Source: Candidatus Binatia bacterium
Lineage (GTDB): Bacteria > Desulfobacterota > Binatia > UBA9968 > JAJDTQ01
Assembly: GCA_022824205.1 (NCBI GenBank)
Contig: JAJEAI010000005.1
Location: 2,632-66,631, forward strand
DNA length: 64,000 nt
Direction of reading: 5' to 3'
Positions 5,573 to 44,958 of this stretch are shown piece after piece; position 1 is the stretch's first letter; each line of letters opens with the position of its first letter. The notes beneath the pieces were generated by a model. The model did not search any database. It had not been told where the DNA came from and was given only the letters and a program-made list of their open reading frames with translations. Made by a program: the position numbers and the translations under genes.

Positions 5573-5584
5573 CTCTTCCGTACC

Positions 5585-7740: not shown

Positions 7741-7773
7741 CCGAATTGCATCCCCCGCGAAAAAGTGCGATGA

Positions 7774-11359: not shown

Positions 11360-11457
11360 CCCCCGTCGGGATGCGCGGGGCGAACGTCGAGCCCGGCGCC
11401 CCGCGCGCTCAAGCAAACGCCCCGTCCGCCGGGCGGGAACGAGAGCGGTGATCGCGG

Positions 11458-11485
11458 CCCGGAGGCCGCGGGCGCGGCCTCCGGG
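11458..11485. terminator. GC-rich 12-bp-stem hairpin between convergent genes
   Basis: cccggaggccgc-gggc-gcggcctccggg is a perfect stem. It lies between the stop of the large subunit (11359) and the stop of the glutaredoxin-like gene (11486). No U-tract on either strand. Confidence 0.35.
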
Positions 11486-11719
11486 TCAGAGCCCGAGAAG
11501 CGTGTCGATCCGATCCTGATCGAAGCCCACCACCGCCTCCCCGTCGATGATGACCACCGGGGTGCTCTGGAAACCGCGGGCCAGCAGGTCCTTCAGGGCC
11601 TCCTCGTCCTCGCGAATGTTCTTCTCCACGAAATCGACGCCTTTTTGAGAAAGATACTCCTTCTCTCGATGACAAGGCGGTCAACCGGGCTGGGTGAACA
11701 GAATGATGGAATCTGCCAT
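11486..11719 (-). CDS. YruB-type glutaredoxin-like protein with in-frame TGA (putative selenocysteine) in a UPPC redox motif
   Basis: The ATG at 11719 is preceded by GGAGG. Translation: MADSIILFTQPG-TGA-PPCHREKEYLSQKGVDFVEKNIREDEEALKDLLARGFQSTPVVIIDGEAVVGFDQDRIDTLLGL. The TGA at 11683-11681 occupies the first Cys of the CPPC motif. Neither half is in the ORF track. Confidence 0.65.
11638..11679 (-). promoter_or_regulatory. SECIS-like stem-loop immediately 3' of the TGA
   Basis: On the mRNA: UGA-c-CGCCUU-gucauc-GAGAGA-aggaguauc-UUUCUC-aaa-AAGGCG. This gives an outer 6-bp stem and an inner 6-bp stem (one G-U pair) with a GU-containing apical loop. Confidence 0.45.
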
Positions 11720-11854
11720 GGGTACCTCCGTGGGTGTCTTCATAACACCGGCCTGAGCGTTTCTCAACGCGCGCCTTGACATGCGGGCGCCACTTCTGTA
11801 GCCAAGGGGGCTTGGCGTCGACAACGCCCGCAAAATCGGAACGGAGGGACATGC

Positions 11855-12904
11855 ATGACACGCAAGGGACTATCGTTTCTGGCCGCGGCCATCATCGTGG
11901 GCGCCGCCCTGTTCGCGGCTCCCGAGGGGCGTGCCGAAGACTTCTACAAGGGCAAGACATTCCGCTTCATCGTCGGCTTCTCTCCCGGAGGCGGCTACGA
12001 CACGTACACCCGGCTGATCGCCCGCTACTTCGGCAGGTACGTCCCCGGCAACCCCACCACGCTCGTTCAGAACATGACCGGCGCCGGCAGCCTCATCTCC
12101 GCCAACTACATCGGCCGGCGCGCCAAGCCCGACGGCCTCAGCGGCGCGGTGTTCAACAACTCGCTCATCGTACAGTCCGCCCTGGGCGACAAGAAGGCCG
12201 GCGCGGTGCCTTTCGACAAGATGGAATGGGTCGGCGCCCCCAGCAGGGGCGAGATCGTGTGCATGATGATGGCCTTCACCGGCAAGACCACGTGGAAGGA
12301 CGTCATCAACTCGAAGGAGCCCATCAAGATAGGCGCCACCCGCGCCGGCTCCACCGGCCACGACATCCCGGCGATACTCAACAAGGCCATGGGCACCAAG
12401 TTGAAGATCATCACCGGGTACCGCGGTACAGCCACCATACGGCTGGCTCTGGAAGGACGGGAGGTCGACGGCTTCTGCTCCCAGTGGGAATCCATGAGGG
12501 TGACCGCCCGAAGCATGCTGGACGCCGAGGGGGACCAGAAACTGGTTCCCTTCGTCATCGACAGCCACAGCTATCCGGATCCGGAGATCCAGAAGATACC
12601 GCTGTTCAAGGACGTGTTGAACGAGGAAGGCCTCAAGCTCTACAACTCATGGGCGTTCCAGATGGCGTTCCAAAGGATGCTGGCACTGCCGCCGGGCACG
12701 CCCAAGGACCGCCTGGAGATCCTGCGGGCGGCCTACGAAAAGACCGTGAAGGACCCCAAACTGCTCGCCGAAGCCAAGAAGGCCAAGCTCGTGTTCACCT
12801 ATGTGCCGGGTCCCGAGGTGGAGAAACTCGTGAGCGGGATCCTCGAAATGCCGCCGGAGGTCAAGGAGAGCCTGTCCTTCCTCGTCAGTCAAACGAAGAA
12901 GTAG
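11855..12904 (+). CDS. Bug/TctC-family periplasmic substrate-binding protein
   Basis: Signal peptide LSFLAAAIIVGAALFAAPEGRA, then KTFRFIVGFSPGGGYDTYTRLIARYF...VQNMTGAGSLISANYI...KPDGL. Confidence 0.75.
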   Translation: MTRKGLSFLAAAIIVGAALFAAPEGRAEDFYKGKTFRFIVGFSPGGGYDTYTRLIARYFGRYVPGNPTTLVQNMTGAGSLISANYIGRRAKPDGLSGAVFNNSLIVQSALGDKKAGAVPFDKMEWVGAPSRGEIVCMMMAFTGKTTWKDVINSKEPIKIGATRAGSTGHDIPAILNKAMGTKLKIITGYRGTATIRLALEGREVDGFCSQWESMRVTARSMLDAEGDQKLVPFVIDSHSYPDPEIQKIPLFKDVLNEEGLKLYNSWAFQMAFQRMLALPPGTPKDRLEILRAAYEKTVKDPKLLAEAKKAKLVFTYVPGPEVEKLVSGILEMPPEVKESLSFLVSQTKK

Positions 12905-12931
12905 CCGCGAGGTGAAGGGAGGGCCGGGAGC

Positions 12932-14386
12932 CTACGGCTCTTCGCCCTCCCCTTCTCCCGCTCGCCAACCCCTCACCAACTCCACCTTCATCACTTTTCC
13001 GGTCGCCCCCTTGGGCAACTCGGACACGAAGCGGATGTGCCGCGGGTACTTGAAGCGGGCCAGCCGGTCCGCGCAATAGGCCGCCAGGGTGTTCGTTTCC
13101 GGCCTGACACCCGGTTTCACCACCACGAACGCGGCGACCTCCTCACCCAGCTCCGGGTGTGGTACCCCCACCACGGCGGCCTCGGCCACGTCCGGGTGCT
13201 CGACCAGCACCGCCTCGACTTCCTGCGGGAAAACCGAATAGCCGCCCCGGAGGATGCGTTCCCGCAGGCGTCCGGTGATCTCCACGAACCCGCCGGCGGA
13301 GATCCGCGCGAGATCGCCGGTCCGGAACCAACCCTCCTCCAGCACCGGGGCGGGATCGTTCCAGTAACCTTGCAGCGCGGCCGGGGTCCTGATCCAGAGT
13401 TCCCCCGTGTCTCCTTCCCCGGTGGCAGCGCTCTCGTCCGCAACCACCCGGACGTCGACACCCGGAACCGCGCGTCCGATGCATTCCGGCCGGTCCTCCG
13501 GCTCCGACGCCAGATACGAGATGGGCCGGAACAACTCGGTCATGCCGTAACCCCGGAGGATGCGATGGCCGGCGCGGCGGCGCCATTCCGAAGCCAGCTC
13601 CCACGGGCACGGCGCCGCGCCCGACACCGCCAGGCGAAGGGAGGACAGGTCCGCGCCGGCAAACTCCGGCGCGCCCAACAGCCGCCGGAACATCGTGGCC
13701 ACACCCAGAAACAGCGTCACGCGACGGTCCGTCATGGCCTCGAGCACCTTGTCCGGAGCGAACCCCCCGGGCAGCACGACGGTAGCGCCCCTGAGCAAGG
13801 GAGCCAGCAACGAGCCGTTCAGACCGAAGGAATGGGGCAGCGGCAGCACCGACAACACCACGTCTTCCGGCACCACCGCCATCATGTCCGCCCACGAGTG
13901 GTTCGCGAACGTCAGCGCCGCGTGGCTGAACACCGCGCCCTTGGGCCGTCCGGTGCTGCCCGAGCTGTAGCCGAAGTGGGCCGGCGCGGCCCCTTCCGGC
14001 GCCGTGTTCCACTGTCCTGGCCGTGCCGCCACACCCTCCACCACCAGCGCCGGAGCCACGTCCGCCAGGACTGCGTCCCGTTCCTCCGACTTGAGCAGCG
14101 GGCTCAACGGCACCGCGGTGGCGCCGAGCTTCCAGGTGCCCAGCATTGCCGCCGCGAAGCTCCAGTGATTCGGCAACACCAGCGCCACCCGGTCACCGGA
14201 CCGGACGCCCCGTTCCGCGAGCTCCCGCGCGAATCCCGCGGCGCGTTCGTGCAGCACGTTGTAACTGAGCGTCTCGTCGGGACAGACCAGCGCGGGCTTC
14301 TCCGGGAAGCGGGCGGCGGTCTCTTCCAACAGGCAGACGAAATTTCGTGTGGGGGAACTCACTTGGTTAAAGACGGGTACCGCCAC
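12932..14386 (-). CDS. AMP-dependent acyl-CoA synthetase/ligase
   Basis: YSSGSTGRPKGAV AMP-binding motif, LRGYGMTE, and C-terminal PKGATGKV. Confidence 0.9.
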   Translation of the reverse strand: MAVPVFNQVSSPTRNFVCLLEETAARFPEKPALVCPDETLSYNVLHERAAGFARELAERGVRSGDRVALVLPNHWSFAAAMLGTWKLGATAVPLSPLLKSEERDAVLADVAPALVVEGVAARPGQWNTAPEGAAPAHFGYSSGSTGRPKGAVFSHAALTFANHSWADMMAVVPEDVVLSVLPLPHSFGLNGSLLAPLLRGATVVLPGGFAPDKVLEAMTDRRVTLFLGVATMFRRLLGAPEFAGADLSSLRLAVSGAAPCPWELASEWRRRAGHRILRGYGMTELFRPISYLASEPEDRPECIGRAVPGVDVRVVADESAATGEGDTGELWIRTPAALQGYWNDPAPVLEEGWFRTGDLARISAGGFVEITGRLRERILRGGYSVFPQEVEAVLVEHPDVAEAAVVGVPHPELGEEVAAFVVVKPGVRPETNTLAAYCADRLARFKYPRHIRFVSELPKGATGKVMKVELVRGWRAGEGEGEEP

Positions 14387-14389
14387 CCT

Positions 14390-14629
14390 GAACCGTCATT
14401 CCCGCGGAAGCTTGCCCTCGACCCCGATCGGGAGCGGGGTGAACCTTTCGCGGGAATGACCCATGTCGGCTCTCGGCCGACACACAGGGGGATGAAAAGG
14501 AGACTTCGGCCCCCCAATACGTCATTCCCGTCCCCCAATACGTCATTCCCGCGGAAGCGGGAATCCAGGGGTGGTTGTGTGGCGGCCCCATTGCCCCCGG
14601 CCCCACCCCGCCTGGATTCCCGCTTCCGC
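14390..14629. repeat. composite REP-like palindromic element (family 1, GTCATTCCCGCG-GAA-GCGGGAAT core)
   Basis: Nested inverted repeats: ccccaatacgtcattcccgcggaagcgggaatccaggggtgg ... ccaccccgcctggattcccgcttccgcgggaatgacgtattgggg. Confidence 0.85.
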
Positions 14630-14752
14630 GGGAATGACGTATTGGGGGACGGGAATGACGCATTGGGGGACGGGAATGACGCATTGGAGGGACGGGAATG
14701 ACGCATTGGAGGGCCGGAATGACGCATTGGAGAGCCGGAATGACGTATTCAA
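14630..14752. repeat. tandem array of about 5.7 units of a 21-22 bp repeat (GGGAATGACGCATTGGRGGRMC)
   Basis: Units start at 14630, 14651, 14672, 14694, 14716 and 14737 (the last is partial). Two inverted copies of the same unit lie at about 14511-14553. Confidence 0.85.
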
Positions 14753-14797
14753 CCGGGCGTAACAAGCCAACCAATCTCCTGCGGCGCGGAAAGCCCA

Positions 14798-16147
14798 CTA
14801 GAGCCCCAGCTTGTCCAGGTCGATGCGTTCCAGCACCTCCCGTGGAATGCGGTTGCGCGGCGTGTATTCGGCCAGGGAAGGCTTGGCCGTGGCGTCGACG
14901 CCCCACTTGGCGGTGTAGCCGTCCGAGTCCGTCGAGGGGTCGAGGTCCGAGCCGCGGGTGTTGGAGATCACCGTGATGTCGCGGTCCGCCTGGCAGCGGG
15001 TACCCAGGGCCCAGGCCACCTCCCGGTCATCGAAGACGTTGACGTCATGGTCCACCACCACCACGCGCTTGATGTACATGTCGGCGCCCAGCACCGCCAG
15101 GATGGCGTTCTTGGCCTGTCCGGAGACCCGCTGCTCGATGGCCACGTAGCAGCTAAAGGGCGCGGGCACGCGCACCGCCGTCACCGACGGGACGATGGCG
15201 CGCACGGCGCGGTAGAGGTTCGCCTCCATGGGGATCGTGGACAGCAGCAGGTGGTCCACCTGGGCCACGGAGATGTCGTGGAACAGCGCTCCCTCCCGCA
15301 TGGTCACGGCCTGGTAGCGTACCACCTCGCGCTGGCGCTCTCCCAGGCTGTAGCCCGTGAACTCGCTGAACGGCCCCTCGGGGGTGCGCTCGCCGGGCAG
15401 GATCTCGCCCTCCAGGACGATCTCCGCGTGAGCCGGCACGAGCAGGTCCGAGGTCTCGCAGCGCACCAGCTCCAGCGGTTCACCCAGGACGCCGCCCATG
15501 ATGGCGCGCTCGTCCTCGTCGATGGAGCCGATGGCCAGCGCTCCCAGGCCGATGGCGGGATGCACCCCCACGGCGAAGGCCACGGGCAACGCCTCGCCGC
15601 GGGCCTCCGCCTTCCGGTAGAACTCCCACAGGTGCTTGGACGCGGTGATGTGGATGGACGTGCGGTCCTTGCCCATGATCATCAGGCGGTTGTAGGCACA
15701 GTTCCAGGTGCCGTCCTCCGGGTCCCGCGCGAACGAGACGGCGGCGGTGAGGTAGGGTCCGGCGTCCGCCGCGTGATGGACGATCTGCGGCAACGCCAGC
15801 AGATCGACGTCGGCACCTGTGTACACCACCTCCTTGACCGGCCCGGTGTCCACCACCACCGGCGCCACCGGGCGCTCCATGGCTTTCAGGAACACGCGCT
15901 GGACCTCGCGCGGCTCGGCGTTCATGGCCAATGCCATGCGCCGCCGGCTCGCGTGGAGGTTGGTCACCACCGGGAGCGCGCTGCCCTTGACGTTCTCCAG
16001 CAGGAGCACCGGCCGGCGGCGCCGTTCACGGGCCAGCTTCGCCACCAGCGCGCTCACCTCGTAGCGCGGGTCCACGGGATCGGCGATCCTGACCAGATCG
16101 TCCTTCGATTCCACCAACTCCAGATAGCTTCCAAGGTCCTGCGGCAT
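14798..16147 (-). CDS. UbiD-family decarboxylase
   Basis: 449 aa. N-terminus DLGSYLELVESKDDLVRIADPVDPRYEVSAL...LLLENVKGS, with family-typical length and layout. Confidence 0.85.
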   Translation of the reverse strand: MPQDLGSYLELVESKDDLVRIADPVDPRYEVSALVAKLARERRRRPVLLLENVKGSALPVVTNLHASRRRMALAMNAEPREVQRVFLKAMERPVAPVVVDTGPVKEVVYTGADVDLLALPQIVHHAADAGPYLTAAVSFARDPEDGTWNCAYNRLMIMGKDRTSIHITASKHLWEFYRKAEARGEALPVAFAVGVHPAIGLGALAIGSIDEDERAIMGGVLGEPLELVRCETSDLLVPAHAEIVLEGEILPGERTPEGPFSEFTGYSLGERQREVVRYQAVTMREGALFHDISVAQVDHLLLSTIPMEANLYRAVRAIVPSVTAVRVPAPFSCYVAIEQRVSGQAKNAILAVLGADMYIKRVVVVDHDVNVFDDREVAWALGTRCQADRDITVISNTRGSDLDPSTDSDGYTAKWGVDATAKPSLAEYTPRNRIPREVLERIDLDKLGL

Positions 16148-16262
16148 GGGTCACCTGTTACTCGGGAATTTCGCCGCAGGCAAGGGATCGCTGCCGCCGG
16201 TTTGACACGCGGCGGGCTTTCCGGTGAAGAAACAGGAAGGGTAGAACGGAAACGGAGGGAAC

Positions 16263-16838
16263 ATGGCCATCGACGAAGAACGGGAGATCGACGATCCCGG
16301 CTGCTGCTCCATAGACTACGGCCACCACAAGGCCGTCTTCGAGCGCCGCCGGAAAGCCTACCAGGAGGATCCATCCACGGCGGTCACGGTGCACGAGGCG
16401 CGCATCCGCCTGGTCAACGACCACCTGAAGGAAGCCAGGACGTCGGAAGGGTACACCATCCTGTGCGACGAGCCGGAGTCGCGCGGCGGCACCGGCAAGG
16501 GCGCGGCCCCGCTCCAGTACTTCGTCGCCTCCATCGGCTTCTGAATGCTCAGCCAAGTGACGCAGTTGGCGTCATTCATGGACATCCGCATCGAGCGTGC
16601 CGAGATGTCGGTGCGCGGAGAGTTCGACCAGAAGGGCAAGTTCGGGTTGTCGGACGTGCCGTCGGCATGCACCCGGCTGGTCTACCGGCTGGAGTTGCAG
16701 AGCCCGGACAGCCAGGAACGCATCGTCGAGTTCACCGAGGCGCTGGAACGCTCCTGCTACACCACCAACACGCTCCGGCGCCCTGTGGAGGTGGTGCCGG
16801 AGCTGACCCTCAACGGAGTGGACGTACCGCTGGGGTAG
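16263..16838 (+). CDS. OsmC-family peroxiredoxin-like protein with in-frame TGA (putative selenocysteine) at the first catalytic Cys position
   Basis: Track ORFs 16263..16544 and 16545..16838 are contiguous and in the same frame, separated only by the TGA at 16542-16544. The joined protein reads ...CDEPESRGGTGKGAAPLQYFVASIGF-U-MLSQVTQLASF...ALERSCYTTNTLRRP. GGAGG lies upstream of the ATG at 16263. Confidence 0.7.
16556..16576 (+). promoter_or_regulatory. SECIS-like hairpin 11 nt downstream of the TGA
   Basis: AGUGACGC-aguug-GCGUCAUU forms an 8-bp stem (one G-U pair) with a 5-nt GU-containing loop. It starts 11 nt after the UGA. Confidence 0.5.
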
Positions 16839-16849
16839 CCCGGTCCGCG

Positions 16850-17080
16850 TGGATTCCCGCTTGCCAGGCTGTGTGAAAACTCCGCGTGGATGAGAATCGG
16901 TACCAAACCCCCGGATCATCATTCCCGCGAAACAGAGTGTGTCAACACTCCACTCAAGAGACGCAACACCCCCTGAACCGTCATTTTCGCGGAAGCGGGA
17001 ATCCAGGAGGCGCGTGGGCGGGGAGGCCGCCCAGTTGGCCCCTCTCCACCCCTGGATTCCCGCTTTCGCGGGAATGACGA
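16850..17080. repeat. family 1 composite REP-like element
   Basis: tcattcccgcgaaacagagtgtgtcaacac...caagagacgcaacaccccctgaaccgtcattttcgcggaagcgggaatccagg ... cccctggattcccgctttcgcgggaatgacg. Confidence 0.85.
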
Positions 17081-31999: not shown

Positions 32000-33229
32000 G
32001 TGGCACGGCTCGAACCGCGCCTGCTGCGCAACTTCGTGCTGCTCTACGGCAGCTCGCTCTTCTCCGGGCTCGCCTGGGGCATGGTGCTGCCCACCATTCC
32101 GGTGCTTTCCGGCTCCTTCGACATCTCCATGGGCGCCGCCGCCCAGACGGTCACGGCCTGGGCCATGGGACGCTTCTGTGGCACACCCGTAAGCGGCATC
32201 ATGCTCGACCGCGTCGGGCCACGCGTGATGATGGTGGGTGGCGCCGCGGTTACGGGCGTAGCCGCCATCGCGGCTTTCCTGAGCCCGTCCTTCGCCGGAC
32301 TGCTGCTGGCGCTGTTCGTAATCGGCGCCGCCGACGCGGTGTGGGCCATGGGGCGCGAGGTCACCGGCATCGACCTCACCGCCCAGAACCAGCGCGGACG
32401 GGTCATGAGCGGCTTCCACGGGGTGCACCACAGCGGCGTCACCATGGGACCGCTGGTGGGCGGCTTCCTCACGGTGTCCGCGGGTTTCCGTACCGTGTTC
32501 ATCGCCTCCGCGCTCGTGTCCGCGCTCGCGACCCTTTCCGGCTTGGCGGTGGACAGGCCGGCGGTCCGGGGCGCGGCGCCGCGCACTCCGGTGCGGACCG
32601 CGTCCGGCGGCTTGGGCCTGCGCCACCTGGCCGGACGCCTGATGGCGCTCTACCGCGAGGTGGAGCCCTCGCTCCGTCCGACCTATGCCGTCCTGGTGGT
32701 GGCCACCGCCGCCAGCCTGATGTTCCGGCTGACGCTCCAGAGCATGCTGCCGCTCTACGCCGGCGCGTATCTGGGCTTCACTCCGGTGGAGGTGGGTGCA
32801 CTCTTCTCCATCTCGGGCGTGGTGGTCTTCTTCATGATCGTGCCCGCGGGCTTCGTGCTCGACAAGGTGGGGAGAAAGTGGGCCACGGTACCCAGCACCG
32901 TGATCCCGGCCCTGGTCTTTCTGGCCATCCCGCTGTCCAGTACCTTCCTGCAACTGGCCGTGCTGGTGTCCGTCCTCGGCATCGCCAACGGCCTCTCCCT
33001 GGGCTGCCTCGCCACCTCCACCTACGACGTGGTGCCGCAGCACGTCCGCGGCCGCCTCCAGGCCATGCGCCGCACCATCGCCGACCTCGCCGGCCTCGGC
33101 GCCCCCCTGGCCGGCGGCATGCTCGCCGACGCGTTCTATCCGGGTGTGCCGTTCTTCGCCCTGACCCCGATCCTGTGGCTGGCGGCGTTGCTGCTGGCGT
33201 TCGTGGCCAAGGAGACGCTGGAGCGATAA
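32000..33229 (+). CDS. MFS transporter
   Basis: 12-TM pattern and the MFS loop motif GIMLDRVGPRVMM. GTG start. Confidence 0.8.
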   Translation: MARLEPRLLRNFVLLYGSSLFSGLAWGMVLPTIPVLSGSFDISMGAAAQTVTAWAMGRFCGTPVSGIMLDRVGPRVMMVGGAAVTGVAAIAAFLSPSFAGLLLALFVIGAADAVWAMGREVTGIDLTAQNQRGRVMSGFHGVHHSGVTMGPLVGGFLTVSAGFRTVFIASALVSALATLSGLAVDRPAVRGAAPRTPVRTASGGLGLRHLAGRLMALYREVEPSLRPTYAVLVVATAASLMFRLTLQSMLPLYAGAYLGFTPVEVGALFSISGVVVFFMIVPAGFVLDKVGRKWATVPSTVIPALVFLAIPLSSTFLQLAVLVSVLGIANGLSLGCLATSTYDVVPQHVRGRLQAMRRTIADLAGLGAPLAGGMLADAFYPGVPFFALTPILWLAALLLAFVAKETLER

Positions 33230-33286
33230 GTCCATCTTTGGCCGGACCTCTCCTCCCGGTAAAGAGTCCCGACACCGTTCAGCATT

Positions 33287-34264
33287 TCAGCGCCGTGTAA
33301 TTTTCGGACCGATATACACGATGTACATGGCGTCACCGGCTTGTCCGGACCAAGAATAATGAAGACGTAGTGTCAGGGGACGTATCTTTCCGTGCCAAGT
33401 GGAGAACAACCTTCTGTTAGGATCGCTAGGATGGGGGAACGTCAACTCGTTCCGAAAGTTCCGTTTCTCGGTATCCGAGGAGTCGGAGAAGAGCGCATTG
33501 TCCCCCGTGAAGTAGTTCTGGTACATACGTTGTCCCTCTGTAGTCCGGACGCCGGAGGCATCGAAGGCGGAAGAGAATCTCTCTAGGATGTCCAAGAGTG
33601 CAAGTACACGCTCCGCCGCGCCCTTCGCGAACGGCAAACCATCGAGAGGACCGAAGCAGGCATCACTGAACGTCAGTCCGGGGCATCGAAGTTTTGAAAC
33701 CCTTTGCAGATCCTCCCATGACCGGAGGGACACCGGCGCTGTGCGCAACGACTCTTCCAGGGCTGAGTCGGTGCGCCAGTTCAGGAGCTCCGTACGTCGA
33801 TCTTCCCGCCCTGCATCGGCCTGCTTCCAAATCACGGCGACAGGAGAGAAGTCCCAATTCGAAGGCGTCACGCTGATCAGGCCACTCGTTAACCCTTGCA
33901 GACTCCGATAGGCAGCCTCACCGACCGCGGAGTCCGTAACGATCTCGTCACCACTTTCCAGCCAGTCGTCGGGGTGGTGCCGTCGGATGTCGTCCCAGAA
34001 AGGACCGCCGCGCGTCATCCAAAGCAATACGGCCCTGCGCATGGCCTCTGGGAACCGCTGAATGACCTGCGGCATTGGCACCCCGTGAACGGCCTCCACG
34101 GACAGCATCCGTCGATTGCAATACACGCCTCGCCCAAAACGCGACGCAATCACTCGCATGCCCATCAGCCGGCTCATGGCGTCGCAGAAGGACGATACGT
34201 CAGGGAACTGACCGTGAATTGACAACTCGTTGGCGAAAAGATCCACTTCAAGCCCAACCGGCAA
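33287..34264 (-). CDS. hypothetical protein, third gene of the low-GC DUF262/ATPase operon
   Basis: 325-aa ORF whose start overlaps the ATPase stop by 17 nt. I recognise no family or catalytic motif. Coding status is supported by length, coupling and its non-antisense-like composition. Confidence 0.6.
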   Translation of the reverse strand: MPVGLEVDLFANELSIHGQFPDVSSFCDAMSRLMGMRVIASRFGRGVYCNRRMLSVEAVHGVPMPQVIQRFPEAMRRAVLLWMTRGGPFWDDIRRHHPDDWLESGDEIVTDSAVGEAAYRSLQGLTSGLISVTPSNWDFSPVAVIWKQADAGREDRRTELLNWRTDSALEESLRTAPVSLRSWEDLQRVSKLRCPGLTFSDACFGPLDGLPFAKGAAERVLALLDILERFSSAFDASGVRTTEGQRMYQNYFTGDNALFSDSSDTEKRNFRNELTFPHPSDPNRRLFSTWHGKIRPLTLRLHYSWSGQAGDAMYIVYIGPKITRR

Positions 34265-35396
34265 AGTAGTTCATGTCCTTGTCAAACTGGTCGAAGAACC
34301 CCGCCGGCCAGGTGTCGACATTCCCTTCGATGTCTAGGCTCGGGGTCTGCACCTGCGGAATACCAGTCTCATCGCTTTCGTGGCGCGGCCTGAAAAAGTG
34401 CAACGCTACGTTCTCGGGCAACAGTTTTCGTTGTTTTATCGCTCGCCGGATACCGTTCAGAACATGATCGCTGTGTGTCTCGATCATGACCTGAACCCCC
34501 ACGGAAGCGACTTCAGCCAGGAACTCCCCCATCATGGCTTGTCCGGCAGGATGCAGATGAACCTCCGGGTTTTCGATCAGCAACAAGTCGTCTCGATTCG
34601 CCGACAAGGCCGCCACCACGATCGGAAACACCTGGGTTAGACCGAAGCCTGTATGGACTGGACGATGAAAATCCATATCACGGGACGTCCTAATCCCGAG
34701 AGTCACAGCATTAGCGCTAGCAACCTTGTCAACGGAAAGGCCACAGCCGGGGAAGAAGCGGGCCATTTGGGCCTCGACCTGGCGCAGGCGTGTTGGCGGT
34801 ATGCCCTGCACCACCAAACCGTCCAGGACTCGAAGATCGAGACCCGAGTAAAGGACACAAGCCGCGTATTCACCGGCTGGGCCGACTACTGGGGTTACCT
34901 GCGGATCTTCCAACACGTAGGACTCTCGCGGTCCCAACCGTTCGGCCGTCAGATAGGTCAGCCCACGCAATCGCTCAACCAAAGAATCTTCGGCACGGCT
35001 TGGCGGCAACAGGTACCGGAGGCTCCCGGGCCTAACGGATTCCTCTCCATCGACGCGACTGCGCACAACCGCCATGGACATCTCGCCGCGTTCGCCGCCG
35101 AACTCCCACTCATACGCCGTGTCTCCATCCAACAACGCGATACCACACTCCCGGCGACCGTGAATCTGGTCGATCACGTCGGATACCGTGCCGAGCCGCA
35201 TGGCTGCACCGTTCAACATAAGCCGCGTCGACCACTCGTGTTCGCGAATCGTCTGATTCAGCAATACGAGCCCCTGCAACACCGACGACTTCCCAGAGGC
35301 GTTAATGCCGGACAGCAACGTCAGTGGACAAAGTGGCAACTTCAGCAGCGAAAAACATTTGAAGTGTCGAAGTTCAATCCGTGTAAGCACCGACAA
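34248..35396 (-). CDS. ABC/AAA_21-type ATPase with DUF3696-like C-terminal tail
   Basis: Walker A GINASGKSS (residues 30-38). Signature-like GFGLTQVFPIV. Walker B plus D-loop LLLIENPEVHLHP. H-loop IETHSDHVL. C-terminal WPAGFFDQFD. Confidence 0.8.
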   Translation of the reverse strand: MSVLTRIELRHFKCFSLLKLPLCPLTLLSGINASGKSSVLQGLVLLNQTIREHEWSTRLMLNGAAMRLGTVSDVIDQIHGRRECGIALLDGDTAYEWEFGGERGEMSMAVVRSRVDGEESVRPGSLRYLLPPSRAEDSLVERLRGLTYLTAERLGPRESYVLEDPQVTPVVGPAGEYAACVLYSGLDLRVLDGLVVQGIPPTRLRQVEAQMARFFPGCGLSVDKVASANAVTLGIRTSRDMDFHRPVHTGFGLTQVFPIVVAALSANRDDLLLIENPEVHLHPAGQAMMGEFLAEVASVGVQVMIETHSDHVLNGIRRAIKQRKLLPENVALHFFRPRHESDETGIPQVQTPSLDIEGNVDTWPAGFFDQFDKDMNYFAGWA

Positions 35397-36480
35397 CGTC
35401 CTCCAGTGCCTTTCGAGTTACCTCGAACCGATACCTCACCTTCCTGGTGTCGCTTGTTCCATACGTAATTGCATCGTTAAAGTTCTCGTCTTCGAGCAAA
35501 TCGTAGAAGGCGAAACGGATATCCGTGCGAGACGAGTCAATCTGATCCGCGGTGTAGTGTGAGAGGCCCGTCGCCATGACGTCCCAAAGAGACGCGTTAA
35601 GGACGCCCCGCCGATCTTGGTCCGCCGCATGCTTCCGAAAAGCATGGCGGCCAAACAACTCATGGTTGTTTTCCATGCCTCTTCGAAAGGATTGACTCAA
35701 ACCTTGAAGATCCGCCTCGGGCATTCGGTTCATCTGCCGCAGGCACTGGGCCAGAAACTTGTCCATGTCGCCATTGTATTCCGAGAGGGGTATGAGTCGG
35801 AACGCACAGAACCTGTTAACGAACTCGCGGTCCCTCATCTTCTTCCGATTCAGGCTTTCACCGGTGGCGTTGATAAAAATTTCCGTTTGCGCTTCAGCCT
35901 TCAGAAAGCGTGTGGCCGGCCCCATAAATAGGCTGTTGCGCATCTGTTGTCTGGTGAGCGGCTCTCCGCTGTTGACTCGCTCGAATATATCCAGCCGAGC
36001 CTGTTCGGGCGCCTTTGAGTCGATAATGTAGAAGATGAGATTGCAGTCCTCAACCCGATTCTGGAGTTTGGATGACAAATCCAAAAACCGCTTTCCGTTG
36101 AGTTCGCTGCGGTCCGGAAGGCGCAATGCGAGCTTGTTGTTGACGAATCGCTGGAATGTGGAAAGGCGCTGCAAACCATCAACGACGACCATTCGCCCGT
36201 CATCGTTCTCCGCCATGTAGAACACCGGCAGAGGAATACGCATGATGACAGACTCTATCAACTTGCTCTGTTTGTCATCCGGCCAGATGAAATCACGCTG
36301 GAAGTCAGGATCCATTACGAAAGTGTTGTGCTCCACTCGTCGAAGGACGTCGTGGATGGTCCGATTCTCGTGTCGGATCAACATATCGTCAAGTGGATAA
36401 TCGCCCCACGAGCCTCCCTCGTGATCGACCCCTTCGATTTCTTCGTCAGTCACCGGATGACTCCATTGTTGCGTTTCCAT
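35374..36480 (-). CDS. DUF262 (ParB/GmrS-like NTPase) domain protein without a DUF1524/HNH nuclease domain
   Basis: FQRDFIWPDDKQSKLIESVIMRIPLPVFYM...VVVDGLQRLSTF (DGQQR-type motif), then RLDIFERVNSGEPLT. The stop overlaps the ATPase start by 23 nt. Confidence 0.8.
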   Translation of the reverse strand: METQQWSHPVTDEEIEGVDHEGGSWGDYPLDDMLIRHENRTIHDVLRRVEHNTFVMDPDFQRDFIWPDDKQSKLIESVIMRIPLPVFYMAENDDGRMVVVDGLQRLSTFQRFVNNKLALRLPDRSELNGKRFLDLSSKLQNRVEDCNLIFYIIDSKAPEQARLDIFERVNSGEPLTRQQMRNSLFMGPATRFLKAEAQTEIFINATGESLNRKKMRDREFVNRFCAFRLIPLSEYNGDMDKFLAQCLRQMNRMPEADLQGLSQSFRRGMENNHELFGRHAFRKHAADQDRRGVLNASLWDVMATGLSHYTADQIDSSRTDIRFAFYDLLEDENFNDAITYGTSDTRKVRYRFEVTRKALEDVVGAYTD

Positions 36481-36937
36481 CGCTTGGTCCCTGTATGCGT
36501 CCGACAGGTCCGTCTGCTCCGTTCAAGATTGAGAGATCACCCTGCAGGCATCCCTCTCACATGGATTTGTTGTGGCCGACCTCGCGCTCCTTTCCTTGCC
36601 CAACCCGACTGGCGCATCATCTTCAGGCAGCGCAACCCGTCCAACATCTCCTGAAACTCCGGCGCTCTAGCCGCCGTTCAGGGCTCGAAGTTGCACTATG
36701 ATGCAGTAAACAGCGGTAGCAAGAGATTCGCCCGTAGCGACTCCTGTATGACATCACGTATGCGTATAGGCAAATACTTGACGTCAACCCTCATCAACGT
36801 ACCCGGACCTCCTCCGCAGTCTCCGACCGTGGAGACGGTCGTACAGGCCGCATAGTCGACCACCGCCTTTGTCGCAGGGTCCGGTGGTTCGGTAGGCGAA
36901 CTTTGTCTGGCGAATGAACCACCGCACTCCGGGACTG

Positions 36938-37666
36938 CTACTTTTCTTCGATCTGCTCGCGGAAGCGTTCCGTGGCGCTCCAGGCCGCCTCATACCGGCT
37001 CTCGTCGATGCGGCCCCGCATCCGCTCCACCCGAAGCAGCAGGAAGTAGGTCTGGATCACGTCCTGGCGGCAGTACTCGTGGATCTCCGCCAGCCGGCCG
37101 TCCTCCCAGAGGTCCTGGACCATGGAGCCGTCGATGGAACCCTTGCCGCGCAGGCCGATGAGCTTGCACAGGAGGTCGAAGCCGCCGCGGATACGGTTGA
37201 CGCCGTGGTTGCCGATGAAGTCGTAGAGGTCGTAGTGGCCGTCCTCCGAGTAGCGGTAGCGGTGCCCGAAACGCTGGTTGAAGTAGCGCGGTGCGCGGCA
37301 ACCGTACTTGAGGGCGTGGAGCTCCAGGACCGGCAGGTCGAAGTTGCGGCCGTTGAACGACACCAGGGTGCCGTTGAACCGTTCGACCCGCTCCCAGAAG
37401 TCCCTGACGATGGCCTCCTCGCTGTAGTCGTCGGCGCACAAGCTCTCGACGTCGACGAGGACGGCGTCGTTGTTCACAATGCCCACCGCGATGGAGATGG
37501 GCACGTGGAAGGAGAGCGGAAGGAAATCACTGCCGGTCTCGGCCACGCGCTCGGCGCGCAGGCGCTCGTAGGCGACGCGGTCGGAGACGTCGTCGTGGGG
37601 AGCGTAGACCGACTTGACCAGTGCCTTGTCGATGCGGGTCTCGATGTCGAAGACGGCGTAAGTCAT
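36938..37666 (-). CDS. predicted 3'-5' exonuclease, RNase H-like fold (PolB exonuclease-domain-like)
   Basis: MTYAVFDIETRID (ExoI DxE)...LVSFNGRNFDLPVL (ExoII)...HYDLYD...YCRQDV (ExoIII). The upstream part of track ORF 36938..38053 was discarded. Confidence 0.7.
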   Translation of the reverse strand: MTYAVFDIETRIDKALVKSVYAPHDDVSDRVAYERLRAERVAETGSDFLPLSFHVPISIAVGIVNNDAVLVDVESLCADDYSEEAIVRDFWERVERFNGTLVSFNGRNFDLPVLELHALKYGCRAPRYFNQRFGHRYRYSEDGHYDLYDFIGNHGVNRIRGGFDLLCKLIGLRGKGSIDGSMVQDLWEDGRLAEIHEYCRQDVIQTYFLLLRVERMRGRIDESRYEAAWSATERFREQIEEK

Positions 37667-37687
37667 GGGTCCGGTCGATTGATCGCG

Positions 37688-37848
37688 CGTCCTTCGACTT
37701 CGCTCCGCTGACGCGGAGCTACGCTCAGGACGAACGGAATGGATTTTTTTGTTCTTAGTCCTGCCAAAGAATTCGGAACGAACACGGCAATCCCCCAACC
37801 GTTCGTCCTGAGCGTAGCTCCGCGTCAGCGGAGCGAAGTCGAAGGACG
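37688..37848. repeat. family 2 element: perfect 50-bp inverted repeat with 61-bp spacer
   Basis: The left arm 37688-37737 (cgtccttcgacttcgctccgctgacgcggagctacgctcaggacgaacgg) is the exact reverse complement of 37799-37848. Each arm also holds an internal GCTCCGC-tgac-GCGGAGC hairpin. Confidence 0.9.
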
Positions 37849-37857
37849 CCGTTTCCG

Positions 37858-38904
37858 CTACTCCGGCCGCACCAGCAGCACCCGGTCGGCGGGCAGCTCC
37901 AGCGGCAGGCGCTCCCAGGACTCGCCCTCGTCCTCGGAGACCAGGACGTCGCCCTTGCCCTTCTGGCCGGCGTCGCTGGAACGGCCGCGGGAAACGGCGC
38001 CGAGGCCGGCGTAGACGCGCCGCGGGTCCTCGGGATGCTGGGTCAGCGCCCATACCATCTGCAGCATGTGGTCGGGCAGCCCGCGGTCGACGCCCACCCG
38101 TTCCCAGCTTTCGGCCAGGTCGCGGCTGCGGAAGAGCGCGCCCTGGGCCTTCTCGGGACGGTCCCAGTAGCCCGGCGACTTGTCCGCGGTGGCCACCAGC
38201 ACCACCGGAGGGTCTCCCGGCAGGAAGACGAAGTCATGGAAGTAGTCGCGGGTCATACCGTATTCCGCGCGCTGCCAACCCGCGCCGGGATCGGCGCTGC
38301 GGAAGAAGCCCTGGGCCGTGGCCACGAACATGGGCCCCGCTCCCGCGGGGGTCGTGCTGATGTGGTGGATGTCCAGATAGTCGATGCCGCCGCTCACGTC
38401 CTCGAAGGACGCGCCGCGGTCGAAGGTGCGCACGATACCGCCGTGTTCGAGACAGACATAGAGGGTCCGGGGATCGTCGGCGGAGACGAAGATGTGGCGG
38501 ACGTGCTCGCGGTGCGGCGGGCGCGGGTAGGTCCACTTGGCGCGCACTTCGGACGGCATGTCCTGCAACGCCGACAGCTCTTCCCAGGTTCCGCCGCCGT
38601 CCTCGCTGCGGAACAGGTGGATGGGCTCGGTGCCGGCGTAGACTACGTCCGGGTCGGTGGGATCGACCGTCACGGCGCGCACGTTGCCGGAGAAGACGGT
38701 GCGCCAGCGTTGCCCGCCGTCGTCGCTGCGGCACAGCCCCTCGTCCGCGACGCTGGCGTACACGGTCCCGGGCCGTTGCGCAGGGCCGTCGATGGCGTCC
38801 ACCGTGCCGGGTGGAAGCGCCACGTCCAGCTCCCCCCAACCGCGCCCCCGGTTGCGCCACACCTGCAAGCCTTCCTGCGTTCCCGCCAGTATGCGTTCGG
38901 TCAT
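37858..38904 (-). CDS. BNR/Asp-box repeat (sialidase-like beta-propeller) protein
   Basis: Asp-box motifs SDDGGQRW, SEDGGGTW and SEDEGESW. Confidence 0.7.
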   Translation of the reverse strand: MTERILAGTQEGLQVWRNRGRGWGELDVALPPGTVDAIDGPAQRPGTVYASVADEGLCRSDDGGQRWRTVFSGNVRAVTVDPTDPDVVYAGTEPIHLFRSEDGGGTWEELSALQDMPSEVRAKWTYPRPPHREHVRHIFVSADDPRTLYVCLEHGGIVRTFDRGASFEDVSGGIDYLDIHHISTTPAGAGPMFVATAQGFFRSADPGAGWQRAEYGMTRDYFHDFVFLPGDPPVVLVATADKSPGYWDRPEKAQGALFRSRDLAESWERVGVDRGLPDHMLQMVWALTQHPEDPRRVYAGLGAVSRGRSSDAGQKGKGDVLVSEDEGESWERLPLELPADRVLLVRPE

Positions 38905-42966: not shown

Positions 42967-43171
42967 GGTTCGTACTCTTCAGCGTTCGTCGAGCGGTGCC
43001 GTGTGGCTCGATACAACGGCGTCCTGCTCACACACGGACGCCTACCAATGTTGGCCCGACTTGGCAACCCGCGTGACGGATGCTCTCAAGGCGATCGTCT
43101 GTTGACAAAAACAACATCTGTACATTCTTGGAGTTTTGTGTCAATGTGATGTATCCACGTGGAAGGATGTC

Positions 43172-43438
43172 ATGATGAGCCGCTTGTCCATAGAGTTGAG
43201 CCCGGAACAGCATCAGCAACTGAAAGCCATCGCCGCCCTGCACGGCCAGACGCTCAAGGACTACATCCTTGAACGAACGTTGCCCGATTTGCCGCAAACG
43301 GAGTCCTTGTCGGAAGAGGAAACCCTGCGCCGGCTGGAAGCGTTTCTGGAGCCCCGGATAGCTGAAGCGGAGCGCGGAGAGGTCATCGAGGAGTCCGTGG
43401 AGCAGGTATTCTCTTCCGTCCGACGTCATGACCCGTAG
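43172..43438 (+). CDS. parD: ribbon-helix-helix antitoxin (ParD/CopG-like)
   Basis: MMSRLSIELSPEQHQQLKAIAALHGQTLKDYILERTL is an RHH N-terminus. GGAAGGA RBS. It ends 2 nt before the toxin gene. Confidence 0.7.
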   Translation: MMSRLSIELSPEQHQQLKAIAALHGQTLKDYILERTLPDLPQTESLSEEETLRRLEAFLEPRIAEAERGEVIEESVEQVFSSVRRHDP

Positions 43439-43440
43439 GC

Positions 43441-43752
43441 ATGTTGCCCTATGAACTGACCCCATCCGCGGCTTCGGACCTGCGCGACATTGCCCGTCAC
43501 ACCCTTACGCGGTGGGGGCGGCGCCAGCAGCAACGCTACGCGCGCCAACTGGAAGGCTGTTGCCAAGCGATCGGCGACGGCACGACCGTATCCCGGACGT
43601 TCTCTCAACGCCATCCATCGGTGTACGTCATGCGTTGCCAACACCACTACATCTTCTACCTCACCCCCGCCGGTGAAAAACCCGTCATAATCGCCTTCCT
43701 GCACGAACGTATGGACTTGACGGCGCGCCTCCAAGGCCGCCTGACCTCATAA
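43441..43752 (+). CDS. parE: ParE/RelE-superfamily toxin
   Basis: LTPSAASDLRDIARHTLTRWGRRQQQRYARQLEGCCQAI...HHYIFYL...VIIAFLHERMD, a ParE-typical pattern. Confidence 0.75.
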   Translation: MLPYELTPSAASDLRDIARHTLTRWGRRQQQRYARQLEGCCQAIGDGTTVSRTFSQRHPSVYVMRCQHHYIFYLTPAGEKPVIIAFLHERMDLTARLQGRLTS

Positions 43753-43785
43753 GCCTGCCGCTGCCGGGCACCTTAAGCGCGGTTG

Positions 43786-44958
43786 TCACACAACATCCTC
43801 CCGCTGCCGGCGGAACAACCCCGCCACGCCTCCGCCGATGGCGAACGAAATCACCCCCAGCGCCACGAAGCCCCAGTGGAATCCCAGGTCCGCCACGAGG
43901 ATGCCGGCGAGGAGAGGGCCGATCATGCGGCCGATGGAGGTGCCGCCGCGGATGAGGCCCAGAGCGACGCCCTTGCTGGAGTCGTCGGCGACCTGCAGTG
44001 CCAGGGTGGTGGAGCCCACGTTGGAGAGGCCGAAGCCGGCGGTCATCAGGCACAGGGGCAGCACCAGCGCGATGTAGCTCTGGCCGAAGATCTGCAGGAC
44101 GAAGGCGGGCACGGTGACGAAAACGCCCAGGAGAATCACCGTGCGGGTGCCGGCGCGGTCGCACAGCCAGCCGCCGGTGAGCCGGCCGGCGGTGTCGGCC
44201 AGGCGCGAGATGCTGACCATGGTGCCGATGATGTCGAGGGTGAGGCCCCGGCGCGCCGCCAGGAACGGGAAGGCGATGCGGGTCACGCCGATAAGGCAGA
44301 GGAACGACTGGAAGATGGCGAGGCAGGCGCCGAGAAAAGCCGGCTGGGCCAGGAGCCCCTTGCCCACGCGCCACAGGGGCATCGAGCCGCGCTCCACGGG
44401 TTTCTCGGTCCGGTGTCCCCGAGCCAGCAGGAGGAAGACCAGCCCCAGGCTCTGGGGCACCGCCACGACCAGGAAGAGCTTGTCGAGACCCCACCATTCG
44501 CCCACGAACCCGCCCATGGTGGGTCCCAGCGCGAAGCCCAGGCCCAGGGCGGCGGCCACCTGCCCCTGCGCCCTGCCCTGCTGCTCGGGCGTGGACTGCA
44601 CGAACACGATGCGGCGGATGGCGAGGCTGAACATGGCCTCGGTGAGTCCGATGATGGCGAAGGCCAACAAGAACACCGCCAGGCTCTCCTGGAAGGCGTA
44701 GCCCACCAGGCTCGTGACGACGGCCACGAGCACCGAGCCCAGCAAGAGGAAGCTCGAGCGGAAATAGGACGCCAGCGTGCCGGACAACACGTCCGAGCAC
44801 AGCGCGCCGACTCCGTTGACCACCAGCGGCATGCCCACCACCGACACGGGGAATCCCTTGGCGTGCATGTAGAACGGCGCCAACATGGCGCTGCCGATGG
44901 CGCCCGAGGCCATGCAGATGGACGCCAGCGAGTACAACAGGTTGGAGAAGATTCCCAT
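43786..44958 (-). CDS. MFS transporter
   Basis: 390 aa with a 12-TM pattern. Confidence 0.8.
   Translation of the reverse strand: MGIFSNLLYSLASICMASGAIGSAMLAPFYMHAKGFPVSVVGMPLVVNGVGALCSDVLSGTLASYFRSSFLLLGSVLVAVVTSLVGYAFQESLAVFLLAFAIIGLTEAMFSLAIRRIVFVQSTPEQQGRAQGQVAAALGLGFALGPTMGGFVGEWWGLDKLFLVVAVPQSLGLVFLLLARGHRTEKPVERGSMPLWRVGKGLLAQPAFLGACLAIFQSFLCLIGVTRIAFPFLAARRGLTLDIIGTMVSISRLADTAGRLTGGWLCDRAGTRTVILLGVFVTVPAFVLQIFGQSYIALVLPLCLMTAGFGLSNVGSTTLALQVADDSSKGVALGLIRGGTSIGRMIGPLLAGILVADLGFHWGFVALGVISFAIGGGVAGLFRRQREDVV

Follow-up and report, generated by a model that had tools for sequence, protein, structure and literature searches.

What does the three-gene operon of foreign base composition carried by a Candidatus Binatia contig encode: an uncharacterised and unnamed defence system, as its initial annotation proposed, or a member of a family that already bears a name? 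We analyzed a window of 64,000 nucleotides, i.e., the whole stretch of DNA around this locus. The ORF list gives three minus-strand genes at 35374-36480 (368 aa, ATG), 34248-35396 (382 aa, TTG), and 33287-34264 (325 aa, TTG), exactly where the trio had been placed, and all of the peptides quoted for it were located in these ORFs (FQRDFIW, VVVDGLQRLSTF, GINASGKSS, LLLIENPEVHLHP, ETHSDH, and WPAGFFDQFD). The flanks had also been named correctly, as Pfam matches identified an MFS transporter gene on the left and a PolB-type exonuclease gene on the right. The G+C content is 0.562 in the triad and 0.582 in the spacer upstream of it, compared to 0.676 in the remaining window (sd 0.024 in 1-kb bins). 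This block lies 4-5 sd under the window mean and is the minimum among all sliding windows of equal length. The G+C dip noted before is real, but the wording "near one half" was too strong for a value of about 56%. Likewise, GC3 reaches 0.65-0.67 in the triad genes versus 0.80 and 0.91 in the genes on either side, and in 68 of 70 related loci the flanks exceed the cassette in G+C. This foreign composition fits a horizontal acquisition of the triad.

The three proteins were queried against PADLOC, and all of them matched Menshen models end to end. NsnA (aa 29-363) aligned to positions 38-383 of the 385 in its profile (9.9e-119), NsnB (aa 4-379) to positions 2-343 of 345 (4.4e-96), and NsnC (aa 8-325 in maximal-ORF numbering) to positions 2-319 of the 319 in PDLC03896 (4.9e-105). 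For each protein, the respective Menshen model outscored by far the models of every other system, and the PADLOC scan of genes neighbouring the triad yielded zero matches. Millman et al. 2022, as cited in PMC12065111, demonstrated that Menshen protects against phages T2, T4, T6, and Fado, and the family has been dissected bioinformatically over 1,997 loci (Li et al., NAR 2025, PMC12065111). The Menshen for which activity has been demonstrated is that of S. silvestris alone (PMC12065111, PMC10952713). We thus regard it as highly probable that nsnA-nsnB-nsnC form a Type I Menshen anti-phage operon that is intact and stands alone, horizontally acquired and located between PolB-type exonuclease and MFS genes of a Candidatus Binatia chromosome. 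What the sequence analysis itself establishes is that the three proteins belong to the Menshen families, that their catalytic motifs are intact, that the order and coupling of the genes are conserved, and that the base composition is foreign. Judged by the family matches, the triad is an already known and named defence system, an ordinary cassette and not a new one; the earlier view of a horizontally acquired, NTPase-based defence module agrees with both the family match and the foreign G+C.

Pfam searches for DUF262, DUF1524, DUF3696, AAA_15, and AAA_21 matched all of these domains except DUF1524, which was absent from all three proteins. The first gene indeed encodes a stand-alone DUF262 protein: GmrSD_N/DUF262 was matched across aa 44-185 (8.7e-24), no further Pfam domain was found in the 368 aa, and the QRxxxW, DGxQR, and FxxxN motifs of Menshen NsnA are all present. 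Nothing was detected in aa 1-43, ahead of DUF262. Type I Menshen differs from Type II in lacking an additional sensor domain N-terminal to DUF262 (PMC12065111), and the absence of such a domain from NsnA therefore assigns this operon to Type I. The second gene encodes, as had been read, an ABC ATPase that ends in a DUF3696 tail (AAA_15 2.5e-21, AAA_21 4.3e-15, DUF3696 4.4e-13), and its unusual "EN" Walker B and GxG signature are those described for NsnB of S. silvestris.

The tight coupling described for these genes holds, but the reported overlaps of 23 nt and 17 nt both belong to maximal ORFs. The likely start of nsnB is the GTG at 35390 (380 aa) instead of the TTG at 35396 that opens the maximal ORF, since a GGAGGA sequence lies 8 nt upstream and 380-aa relatives share the resulting 17-nt overlap. 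Similarly, nsnC likely starts at the GTG at 34246 (319 aa) and not at the TTG at 34264 of the maximal ORF, because the consensus of its homologues (586 detected, mostly 319 aa) begins with MDLFAN and this codon falls 1 nt past the nsnB stop. With the revised starts, the nsnA/nsnB junction becomes a 17-nt overlap and the nsnB/nsnC junction a 1-nt gap, and the three closest relatives (L001-L003) were gene-called with this identical arrangement. For nsnA, an in-frame start codon upstream of 36480 is absent.

Table 1. Features of the Menshen operon and its surroundings (window positions; NsnC residues in 319-aa numbering)
Feature	Position	Strand	Basis
PolB-type 3'-5' exonuclease gene, host flank outside the system	36938..38053	-	Pfam DNA_pol_B_exo2 4.1e-51
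Upstream spacer, 457 bp, 58% G+C, presumed operon promoter and leader	36481..36937	-	composition
nsnA, ParB-like DUF262 NTPase with C-terminal ParBDB-type region, 368 aa	35374..36480	-	Pfam, PADLOC
NsnA motif QRDFIW	36283-36300	-	sequence
NsnA motif DGLQR	36166-36180	-	sequence
NsnA motif FERVN	35971-35985	-	sequence
GGAGGA, Shine-Dalgarno sequence of nsnB, within 3' end of nsnA	35399..35404	-	read from sequence
nsnB (likely start), ABC-type ATPase with DUF3696 tail, 380 aa	34248..35390	-	Pfam, PADLOC, Shine-Dalgarno spacing
NsnB Walker A GINASGKS	35286-35309	-	sequence
NsnB GxG signature GFGLTQ	34632-34649	-	sequence
NsnB Walker B LLLIEN ("EN" variant)	34569-34586	-	sequence
NsnB H-loop ETHSDH	34464-34481	-	sequence
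NsnB DUF3696 tail WPAGFFDQFD	34281-34310	-	sequence
nsnC (likely start), predicted effector, 319 aa	33287..34246	-	PADLOC NsnC PDLC03896 4.9e-105
NsnC C-terminal domain, putative BECR (YafQ/RelE-like) RNase	33290..33679	-	predicted structure
NsnC conserved FSDSS, 253-257	33476-33490		
NsnC conserved H272 in FPHP	33428-33439		
NsnC conserved H285 and K287 in WHGK	33386-33397		
NsnC conserved R294 and H296 in RLH	33359-33367		
NsnC conserved GPKIT, 313-317	33296-33310		
Convergent spacer, 57 bp, nsnC stop to MFS stop, left border of the island	33230..33286	.	ORF positions
MFS transporter gene, host flank outside the system	32000..33229	+	Pfam MFS_1 3.5e-39

The third protein had been described as matching nothing. 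This stands for Pfam and NCBIfam, which gave zero matches, but not for PADLOC, by which it is NsnC; its earlier designation as the predicted effector agrees with the role of NsnC in Menshen. An AlphaFold2 model (mean pLDDT 87.2) divides it into an N-terminal alpha/beta domain (approximately aa 1-190) and a putatively BECR-like C-terminal domain (approximately aa 190-319). The latter models confidently (pLDDT 92.8). In a Foldseek comparison of a separate model of this domain with the PDB, YafQ, HigB, RelE, or ParE-type toxins made up nine of the ten best matches, all at sub-significant scores (best E 0.26). Profile searches were negative: the NsnC alignment matched no PDB sequence at E <= 10, hhalign of the C-terminal profile against an approximate E. 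coli YafQ sequence, a comparison of value as a lead only, gave a probability of 0.13%, and 31 sequences of the C-terminal domain searched against Pfam at E <= 10 returned only noise. The published assignment of the effector is PB-BECR1 with a His-Arg-His triad (PMC12065111). The structural matches fit that assignment and point to the C-terminal domain as a candidate BECR RNase. In addition, partial PADLOC NsnC matches span only aa 9-138 or only aa 213-322, and these N-terminal-only and C-terminal-only matches reproduce the published modular polymorphism of NsnC (PMC12065111).

The alternative that survives best keeps the operon as Menshen but gives NsnC a chemistry other than that of a simple BECR RNase, as a dual PIN and BECR nuclease or through a C-terminal domain acting on DNA or another substrate. 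It is argued in a 2026 preprint that active-site residues persist in PIN domains joined to a Menshen BECR effector. In the N-terminal domain here, the acidic residues D91, D92, D100, E103, and E116 (325-aa numbering) are invariant or near-invariant, and the BECR assignment is itself sub-significant. Beta and alpha elements alternate in the N-terminal domain, a pattern compatible with PIN. However, a Foldseek search of the PDB with the full-length model found no match with E below 1 and none to a PIN domain, the canonical D-E-D-D set is missing from every major NsnC N-terminal domain (PMC12065111), and the top matches of the C-terminal domain are consistently RNases of the RelE/YafQ type. We consider such a departure unlikely, though worth keeping in mind. 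Since the 319-aa subfamily is large, with a strongly conserved His/Arg/Lys cluster and a confident model, it is a reasonable candidate for biochemistry on the Menshen mechanism.

A mechanism for the Menshen operon can be proposed by analogy with what has been published about Menshen itself and about related defence systems built on DUF262 proteins and ABC ATPases. NsnA would be the sensor, recognising a feature of invading phage DNA through its ParB-like DUF262 NTPase and the attached DNA-binding domain. NsnB would act as the transducer: this ABC ATPase is predicted to assemble as a tetramer, with its DUF3696 tails pairing to clamp the PIN-like N-terminal domain of NsnC. ATP binding or hydrolysis would next activate or release NsnC, whose C-terminal BECR-fold domain would cleave RNA, halting phage propagation, with H272, H285, R294, and H296 as candidate catalytic residues. 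As for Menshen in general, the system no longer defends once its DUF262 gene is lost (PMC10952713), an NsnB4-NsnC2 complex has been predicted (PMC12065111), and higher-order complexes have been seen by mass photometry in the literature. The cassette might instead be a selfish addiction module of the toxin-antitoxin kind, or an anti-plasmid device, and not a dedicated anti-phage system: the putative fold of the effector is that of RelE/YafQ toxins, distant homologous triads occur on plasmids (one beside parA), and the cassette shifts between sites and phyla. We find this very unlikely, as the type system has anti-phage activity in the account given by PMC12065111, zero homologues were found among 50,697 phage records, and the cassette is often embedded in Hma defence operons.

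The Hma (helicase-methylase-ATPase) association emerged from a survey of related loci. The order A-B-C on one strand was found in 82 of 83 of them, from more than 12 phyla, and the exception is a locus cut by a contig end. Hma genes surround the cassette in 26-30 of the 73 relatives with full flanks (approximately 40%). In the six closest relatives (L001-L006), the triad is embedded as HmaC-DUF7680-[NsnABC]-HmaB-HmaA, and the Hma-Menshen island of L001 occupies the same chromosomal site as the triad of the window. Both flanking genes also border the island in L001, with 89.9% DNA identity for the PolB-type exonuclease gene (L001 positions 2-337) and 79% for the MFS gene (L001 positions 15412-16960). 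These observations, together with the fact that independence from Hma is an assumption, would also suit an orphaned leftover of a composite Hma-Menshen island, dependent on Hma and, by itself, inactive or changed in function. On the other hand, more than half of the 73 fully flanked loci have no Hma, Hma-embedded systems are generally autonomous defences according to the literature, and the validated S. silvestris Menshen functions as three genes, as far as described in PMC12065111. Moreover, the ORFs and motifs are all intact, and tblastn of HmaA, HmaB, HmaC, and DUF7680 from L002 against the window revealed no Hma remnant (best E 0.11). We find the orphaned state very unlikely. An Hma operon with an embedded system at the window itself was rejected, as hmaA, hmaB, and hmaC do not flank the cassette (tblastn).

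The borders of the Menshen operon were searched for traces of its arrival. Homology to L001 stops 9 nt beyond the nsnC stop, and the upstream spacer is homologous to the closest relative only over its proximal ~52 nt (36481-36532). No convincing promoter, ORF, Rfam family, or stable RNA fold (z -1.36) was found in this spacer, and neither a terminator nor a small ORF was found in it or at the borders. No integrase, transposase, or tRNA accompanies the cassette in the window; tRNA and Rfam searches were empty and border repeats of any meaning were absent, in line with what had been noted for integrase, tRNA, and direct repeats at the borders. A candidate border repeat with the core TGAACGG (36514-36529 and 33270-33285) was attributed to chance, its motif being unconserved across 81 loci, and repeats shared from flank to flank in these loci were about as long as those of shuffled controls (5.96 versus 5.80). 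A relic of an AAA_16/TPR gene in the upstream spacer was also discarded: the 33-aa tblastx match (E 0.001) occurred on both strands and is thus compositional.

A second Binatia site of the cassette corresponds to approximately 42,970-43,800 of the window and is occupied in L004, L011, L032, and L033; a PADLOC scan of ORFs in this hotspot gave no matches. It is conceivable, if rather doubtful, that this Menshen lineage moves by its own means as a discrete unit of three genes, entering and leaving Hma operons, shifting between two or more neighbouring Binatia sites, and occurring across more than 12 phyla. If this were true, movement without integrase, transposase, tRNA, or border repeat would imply an undescribed route of mobilisation or recombination. 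Relatives carry the same cassette within Hma, at this site or a neighbouring one, which is a clear natural case of exchange at defence hotspots on the level of whole cassettes.

Among characterised systems, the closest is Menshen of S. silvestris StLB046. Both have three components in the same order, an NsnA with DUF262 and ParBDB but no N-terminal sensor domain, an NsnB ABC ATPase with the EN Walker B, GxG signature, and DUF3696 tail, and a two-domain NsnC whose C-terminal domain, here putatively YafQ-like, bears a conserved His/Arg/His cluster. They differ in host, here an uncultured high-GC lineage (Ca. Binatia), and in NsnC subfamily, which here is PDLC03896 (4.9e-105) as opposed to PDLC03879 (7.3e-13). 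GmrSD, BrxU, and SspE share with NsnA the N-terminal ParB-like DUF262 NTPase with DGxQR, presumably a sensor, followed by a helical DNA-binding region. However, NsnA has no DUF1524/HNH, the nuclease role being passed to a separate protein via the ABC ATPase, and membership in this group was rejected as the DUF262-DUF1524 fusion is absent. PADLOC matches to SspE and HEC-05/06 were weak (E 1e-2 to 1e-7; SspE 0.018). PD-T4-2 also has a DUF262 protein without DUF1524, and PD-T4-2_A matches NsnA over its full length (6e-36), but far more weakly than the NsnA model (9.9e-119), and the partner genes differ.

Further resemblances concern the ATPase. In PARIS (AriAB), Septu (PtuAB), and Gabija (GajAB), an OLD-type ABC ATPase is likewise predicted to hold and regulate a nuclease partner, and NsnB cross-matched AriA (6.4e-24), GajA (7e-12), and PtuA (7e-11) in PADLOC. 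Unlike them, Menshen adds a DUF262 sensor protein, its DUF3696 tail would be the effector clamp, and its effector would be BECR-like, versus Toprim or HNH. HEC-03 and PDC-M55 (Payne et al. preprint) have a related C-terminal ATPase half (HEC-03B 7.1e-28, PDC-M55A 8e-33), a partner protein with a PIN-like domain, and also occur embedded in Hma, but they are two-gene systems without DUF262 and match only aa 204-370 of NsnB. MADS was discarded, as MAD3 scored 49.9 bits versus an NCBIfam cut-off of 420 and the methylase is absent from the island.

A new, unnamed three-gene system, as first proposed, is hardly credible: Pfam and NCBIfam leave gene 3 without a family and the triad without a system-level name, but the whole triad matches the named Menshen models end to end (1e-96 to 1e-119), a result that the proposal itself had listed as its refutation, the same architecture is detailed in PMC12065111, and the PADLOC profile of the matching NsnC subfamily has 319 positions, the protein's own length. 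The annotation of this locus should therefore read Menshen (Type I) instead of new defence system. The value of the finding is mainly corrective, and it adds a Menshen copy that stands alone in an uncultured high-GC lineage of which little is studied.

The proteins encoded by the three-gene cassette were scanned against Pfam, NCBIfam and PADLOC-DB. Pfam identified DUF262 (GmrSD_N, E 8.7e-24) in the product of gene 1 and AAA_15, AAA_21 and DUF3696 in that of gene 2; gene 3 had no Pfam match, and the NCBIfam scan returned nothing further above cut-offs. In PADLOC-DB the triad matched one named system, Menshen (NsnABC), end to end, with far weaker runners-up (PD-T4-2_A, 6e-36; PDC-M55A, 8e-33; HEC-03B, 7e-28; AriA, 6e-24). 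By these profile matches the triad is Menshen, an already named system to which standard defence-annotation tools would give that label, and not the uncharacterised system proposed in the initial annotation. That proposal was right in kind, as to a horizontally acquired, NTPase-driven defence module with the third gene as effector. NsnA contains the motifs QRDFIW, DGLQR (with R105) and FERVN; ahead of DUF262 lies a loop of just 43 aa, which places the protein in Type I Menshen. NsnB contains a Walker A motif (GINASGKS, with K34, or K36 in maximal-ORF numbering), an H-loop and a DUF3696 tail, and its uncommon EN-type Walker B (LLLIEN) and GxG signature (GFGLTQ) recur in the NsnB of Solibacillus silvestris.

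Features of the Menshen locus and its surroundings in the window
Feature	Coordinates	Strand	Maximal ORF	Start	PADLOC model	E	Alignment
gene 1 (nsnA)	35374-36480	minus	368 aa	ATG	NsnA	9.9e-119	near full length
gene 2 (nsnB)	34248-35396	minus	382 aa	TTG	NsnB	4.4e-96	near full length
gene 3 (nsnC)	33287-34264	minus	325 aa	TTG	NsnC (PDLC03896)	4.9e-105	profile positions 2-319 of 319
Segment upstream of nsnA	36533-36937
PolB-exonuclease gene	36938-38053	minus	371 aa
BNR-repeat gene	37858-38904
Empty intergenic region	42967-43684

The Menshen architecture was defined in a comparative study of 1,997 loci from 27 phyla, in which NsnA combines ParB-DUF262 with a ParBDB DNA-binding domain, NsnB is an ABC ATPase with DUF3696, and NsnC joins an inactive-PIN-like N-terminal domain to a variable C-terminal nuclease, most commonly PB-BECR1, which has YafQ as its best structural match and an H-R-H triad (PMC12065111). 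The S. silvestris system is reported there, after Millman et al. 2022, to protect against T2, T4, T6 and Fado, and one statement in PMC10952713 is that defence is abolished on loss of the DUF262 gene. AlphaFold3 models predict an NsnB tetramer that holds NsnC (ipTM 0.81; PMC12065111), and higher-order complexes have been seen by mass photometry.

The full-length model of the window NsnC shows two domains with good confidence (pLDDT 87.2); as a Foldseek query it found nothing. When the C-terminal domain was modelled alone (pLDDT 92.8, pTM 0.86), none of its PDB matches was significant by itself (best E 0.26, probability 0.77), and nine of the top ten were RelE-superfamily toxins (three YafQ, two HigB, two HigB2, PfiT and RelE), with ParE2 close behind. 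Across the NsnC subfamily, residues H285, K287 and R294 are invariant and H272 and H296 near-invariant (319-aa numbering). At the sequence level a BECR link gained no support, with negative results from a profile search of the PDB, from hhalign against YafQ and from the Pfam scan. We consider this domain most likely to be a BECR-type RNase. The N-terminal domain is predicted to adopt an alternating beta-alpha fold compatible with a PIN-like domain; among its conserved positions are several acidic residues, invariant or nearly so (D85, D86, D94, E97 and E110 in 319-aa numbering). Because of these residues, and because a 2026 preprint argues for an active PIN domain, albeit in a different group of Menshen effectors (those carrying BECR-Tox2), we keep a dual-nuclease NsnC as a possibility beside the single C-terminal RNase. 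Some PADLOC matches to NsnC are partial, confined to aa 9-138 or to aa 213-322, a pattern that mirrors the N- and C-terminal module shuffling published for Menshen. NsnA would sense phage DNA, on the model of DUF262 in GmrSD and SspE; an NsnB tetramer would grip NsnC through paired DUF3696 tails, and a nucleotide-dependent change may then activate or free the NsnC nuclease.

The three ORFs were found at the coordinates of the initial annotation, together with every peptide motif that it quoted; its tight coupling stands, while its overlap sizes apply to the maximal ORFs and not to the likely true starts. A GGAGGA Shine-Dalgarno sequence lies 8 nt upstream of a GTG at 35390 and just 2 nt from the TTG at 35396, and nsnB of the closest relatives is gene-called at 380 aa, overlapping nsnA by 17 nt. 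Of the 120 NsnC homologues listed, nearly all are 317-330 aa long (most commonly 319), and their consensus N-terminus, MDLFAN, matches a GTG at 34246, 1 nt past the nsnB stop (TGAaGTG), a gap also gene-called in the three closest loci (L001-L003). These two GTG codons are the likely starts of nsnB and nsnC, and the resulting 17-nt overlap and 1-nt gap leave the genes tightly coupled. The maximal ORF of the neighbouring PolB-exonuclease gene overlaps the upstream BNR-repeat gene by about 195 nt; because its Pfam domain begins only at aa 175, its true start is probably well downstream.

The reported dip in G+C is real, and the window has no stronger one. The triad (0.562) and its 457-bp upstream spacer (0.582) compare with 0.676 ± 0.024 in other 1-kb bins (z = -4 to -5), no 3.2-kb stretch is lower, and GC3 is 0.65-0.67 in the triad genes versus 0.80 and 0.91 in the flanking PolB-exonuclease and MFS genes. 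The flanks are as initially named, MFS_1 and EamA transporters to the left and a DNA_pol_B_exo2 exonuclease to the right. No tRNA, Rfam family or mobility gene was found in the 3.7-kb block, and border repeats were at chance level. The segment of about 405 bp ahead of nsnA (58% G+C) has no counterpart in any of 83 related loci; searches there for an ORF, a promoter, an Rfam family and a stable RNA fold (z -1.36) gave nothing convincing, and a weak 33-aa tblastx match on both strands to the AAA_16/TPR gene of L002-L004 is probably compositional.

Since the window's host genes are 80-87% identical in DNA to two Candidatus Binatia chromosomes (L033 and L004), the window probably comes from a Binatia relative. 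The closest cassette, L001 (NsnA/B/C 77/79/73% identical; triad DNA 75.6%), is flanked by the same PolB-exo and MFS/EamA genes, and lies in an island of ~15 kb (370-15305) with HmaC (DUF499), DUF7680, an AAA_16 protein, NsnABC, an HmaB apparently broken by a transposase, and HmaA. At 8988-13196 of L001, a 233-aa DUF1156 HmaB fragment precedes an opposite-strand Transposase_mut (IS256-type) gene and the remaining HmaB. This break suggests that the Hma part of the island is decaying at the very site where the window has Menshen alone. Embedding of defence systems in Hma has been described previously; here the order HmaC(DUF499)-DUF7680-[NsnABC]-HmaB(DUF1156 methylase)-HmaA(SNF2 helicase) occurs in 26-30 of 73 loci with full flanks, including all of the window's closest relatives (L001, L002 and L004 among them). 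An AAA_16/ORC-CDC6-like gene is often near such triads. No Hma remnant was detected in the window and PADLOC found no matches among the triad's neighbours, so this copy stands alone, outside any defence island. Just downstream of nsnC, L033 retains the start of an HmaB-like gene (ATGGCCGACACGCGCCTGATCGAG; 10966-11404, with an 80% tblastn match at 11195-11404) but has no full Hma, which looks like Hma loss caught midway with the Menshen cassette kept. At a different site, equivalent to ~42,970-43,800 of the window, four Binatia relatives (L004, L011, L032 and L033) carry Hma and/or Menshen islands. The window has there an intergenic region of ~720 bp, about 6 kb from the occupied site and within its second-lowest G+C 1-kb bin (0.614), whose small ORFs had no PADLOC matches; it looks like an empty second defence hotspot.

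In all, 586 NsnC homologues were detected, and scanning species-representative genomes gave 80 loci, with sources that include Binatia, Latescibacterota, Acidobacteriota, Alpha- and Gammaproteobacteria, Chloroflexota, Nitrospirales, Thermodesulfobacteriota, Spirochaetia, Gemmatimonadota and further groups. Among 83 related loci, 82 carry the three genes in A-B-C order, and the remaining one is cut by a contig end. Identities to the window proteins were 55-78% for NsnA, 58-83% for NsnB and 46-73% for NsnC, making the effector the most divergent component. Cassette G+C was below that of the distal flanks in 68 of 70 loci, as expected of horizontally moving DNA. Distant triads (NsnC 28-33% identical) were located on four plasmids, and none in the phage records searched. 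One of them (NsnC 33% identical) adjoins parA at 2708-5963 of the 29-kb cyanobacterial plasmid pCRI9333.06 of Crinalium epipsammum (L084, NC_019755.1), where RefSeq names its products only 'DUF262 domain-containing protein', 'DUF3696 domain-containing protein' and 'hypothetical protein'. The name Menshen is still missing from standard genome annotation. The NsnC subfamily is common to MAGs of more than a dozen phyla (L004-L083), at 47-67% protein identity and about 65-68% whole-triad DNA identity. Some of these MAGs bear names (APA_bin, RHO1_bin, COS4_bin, CAR1_bin, SB0665_bin) that we take to resemble those of marine-sponge microbiome bins. If the MAGs are sponge-derived, this distribution would suggest exchange of the NsnC subfamily within one habitat.
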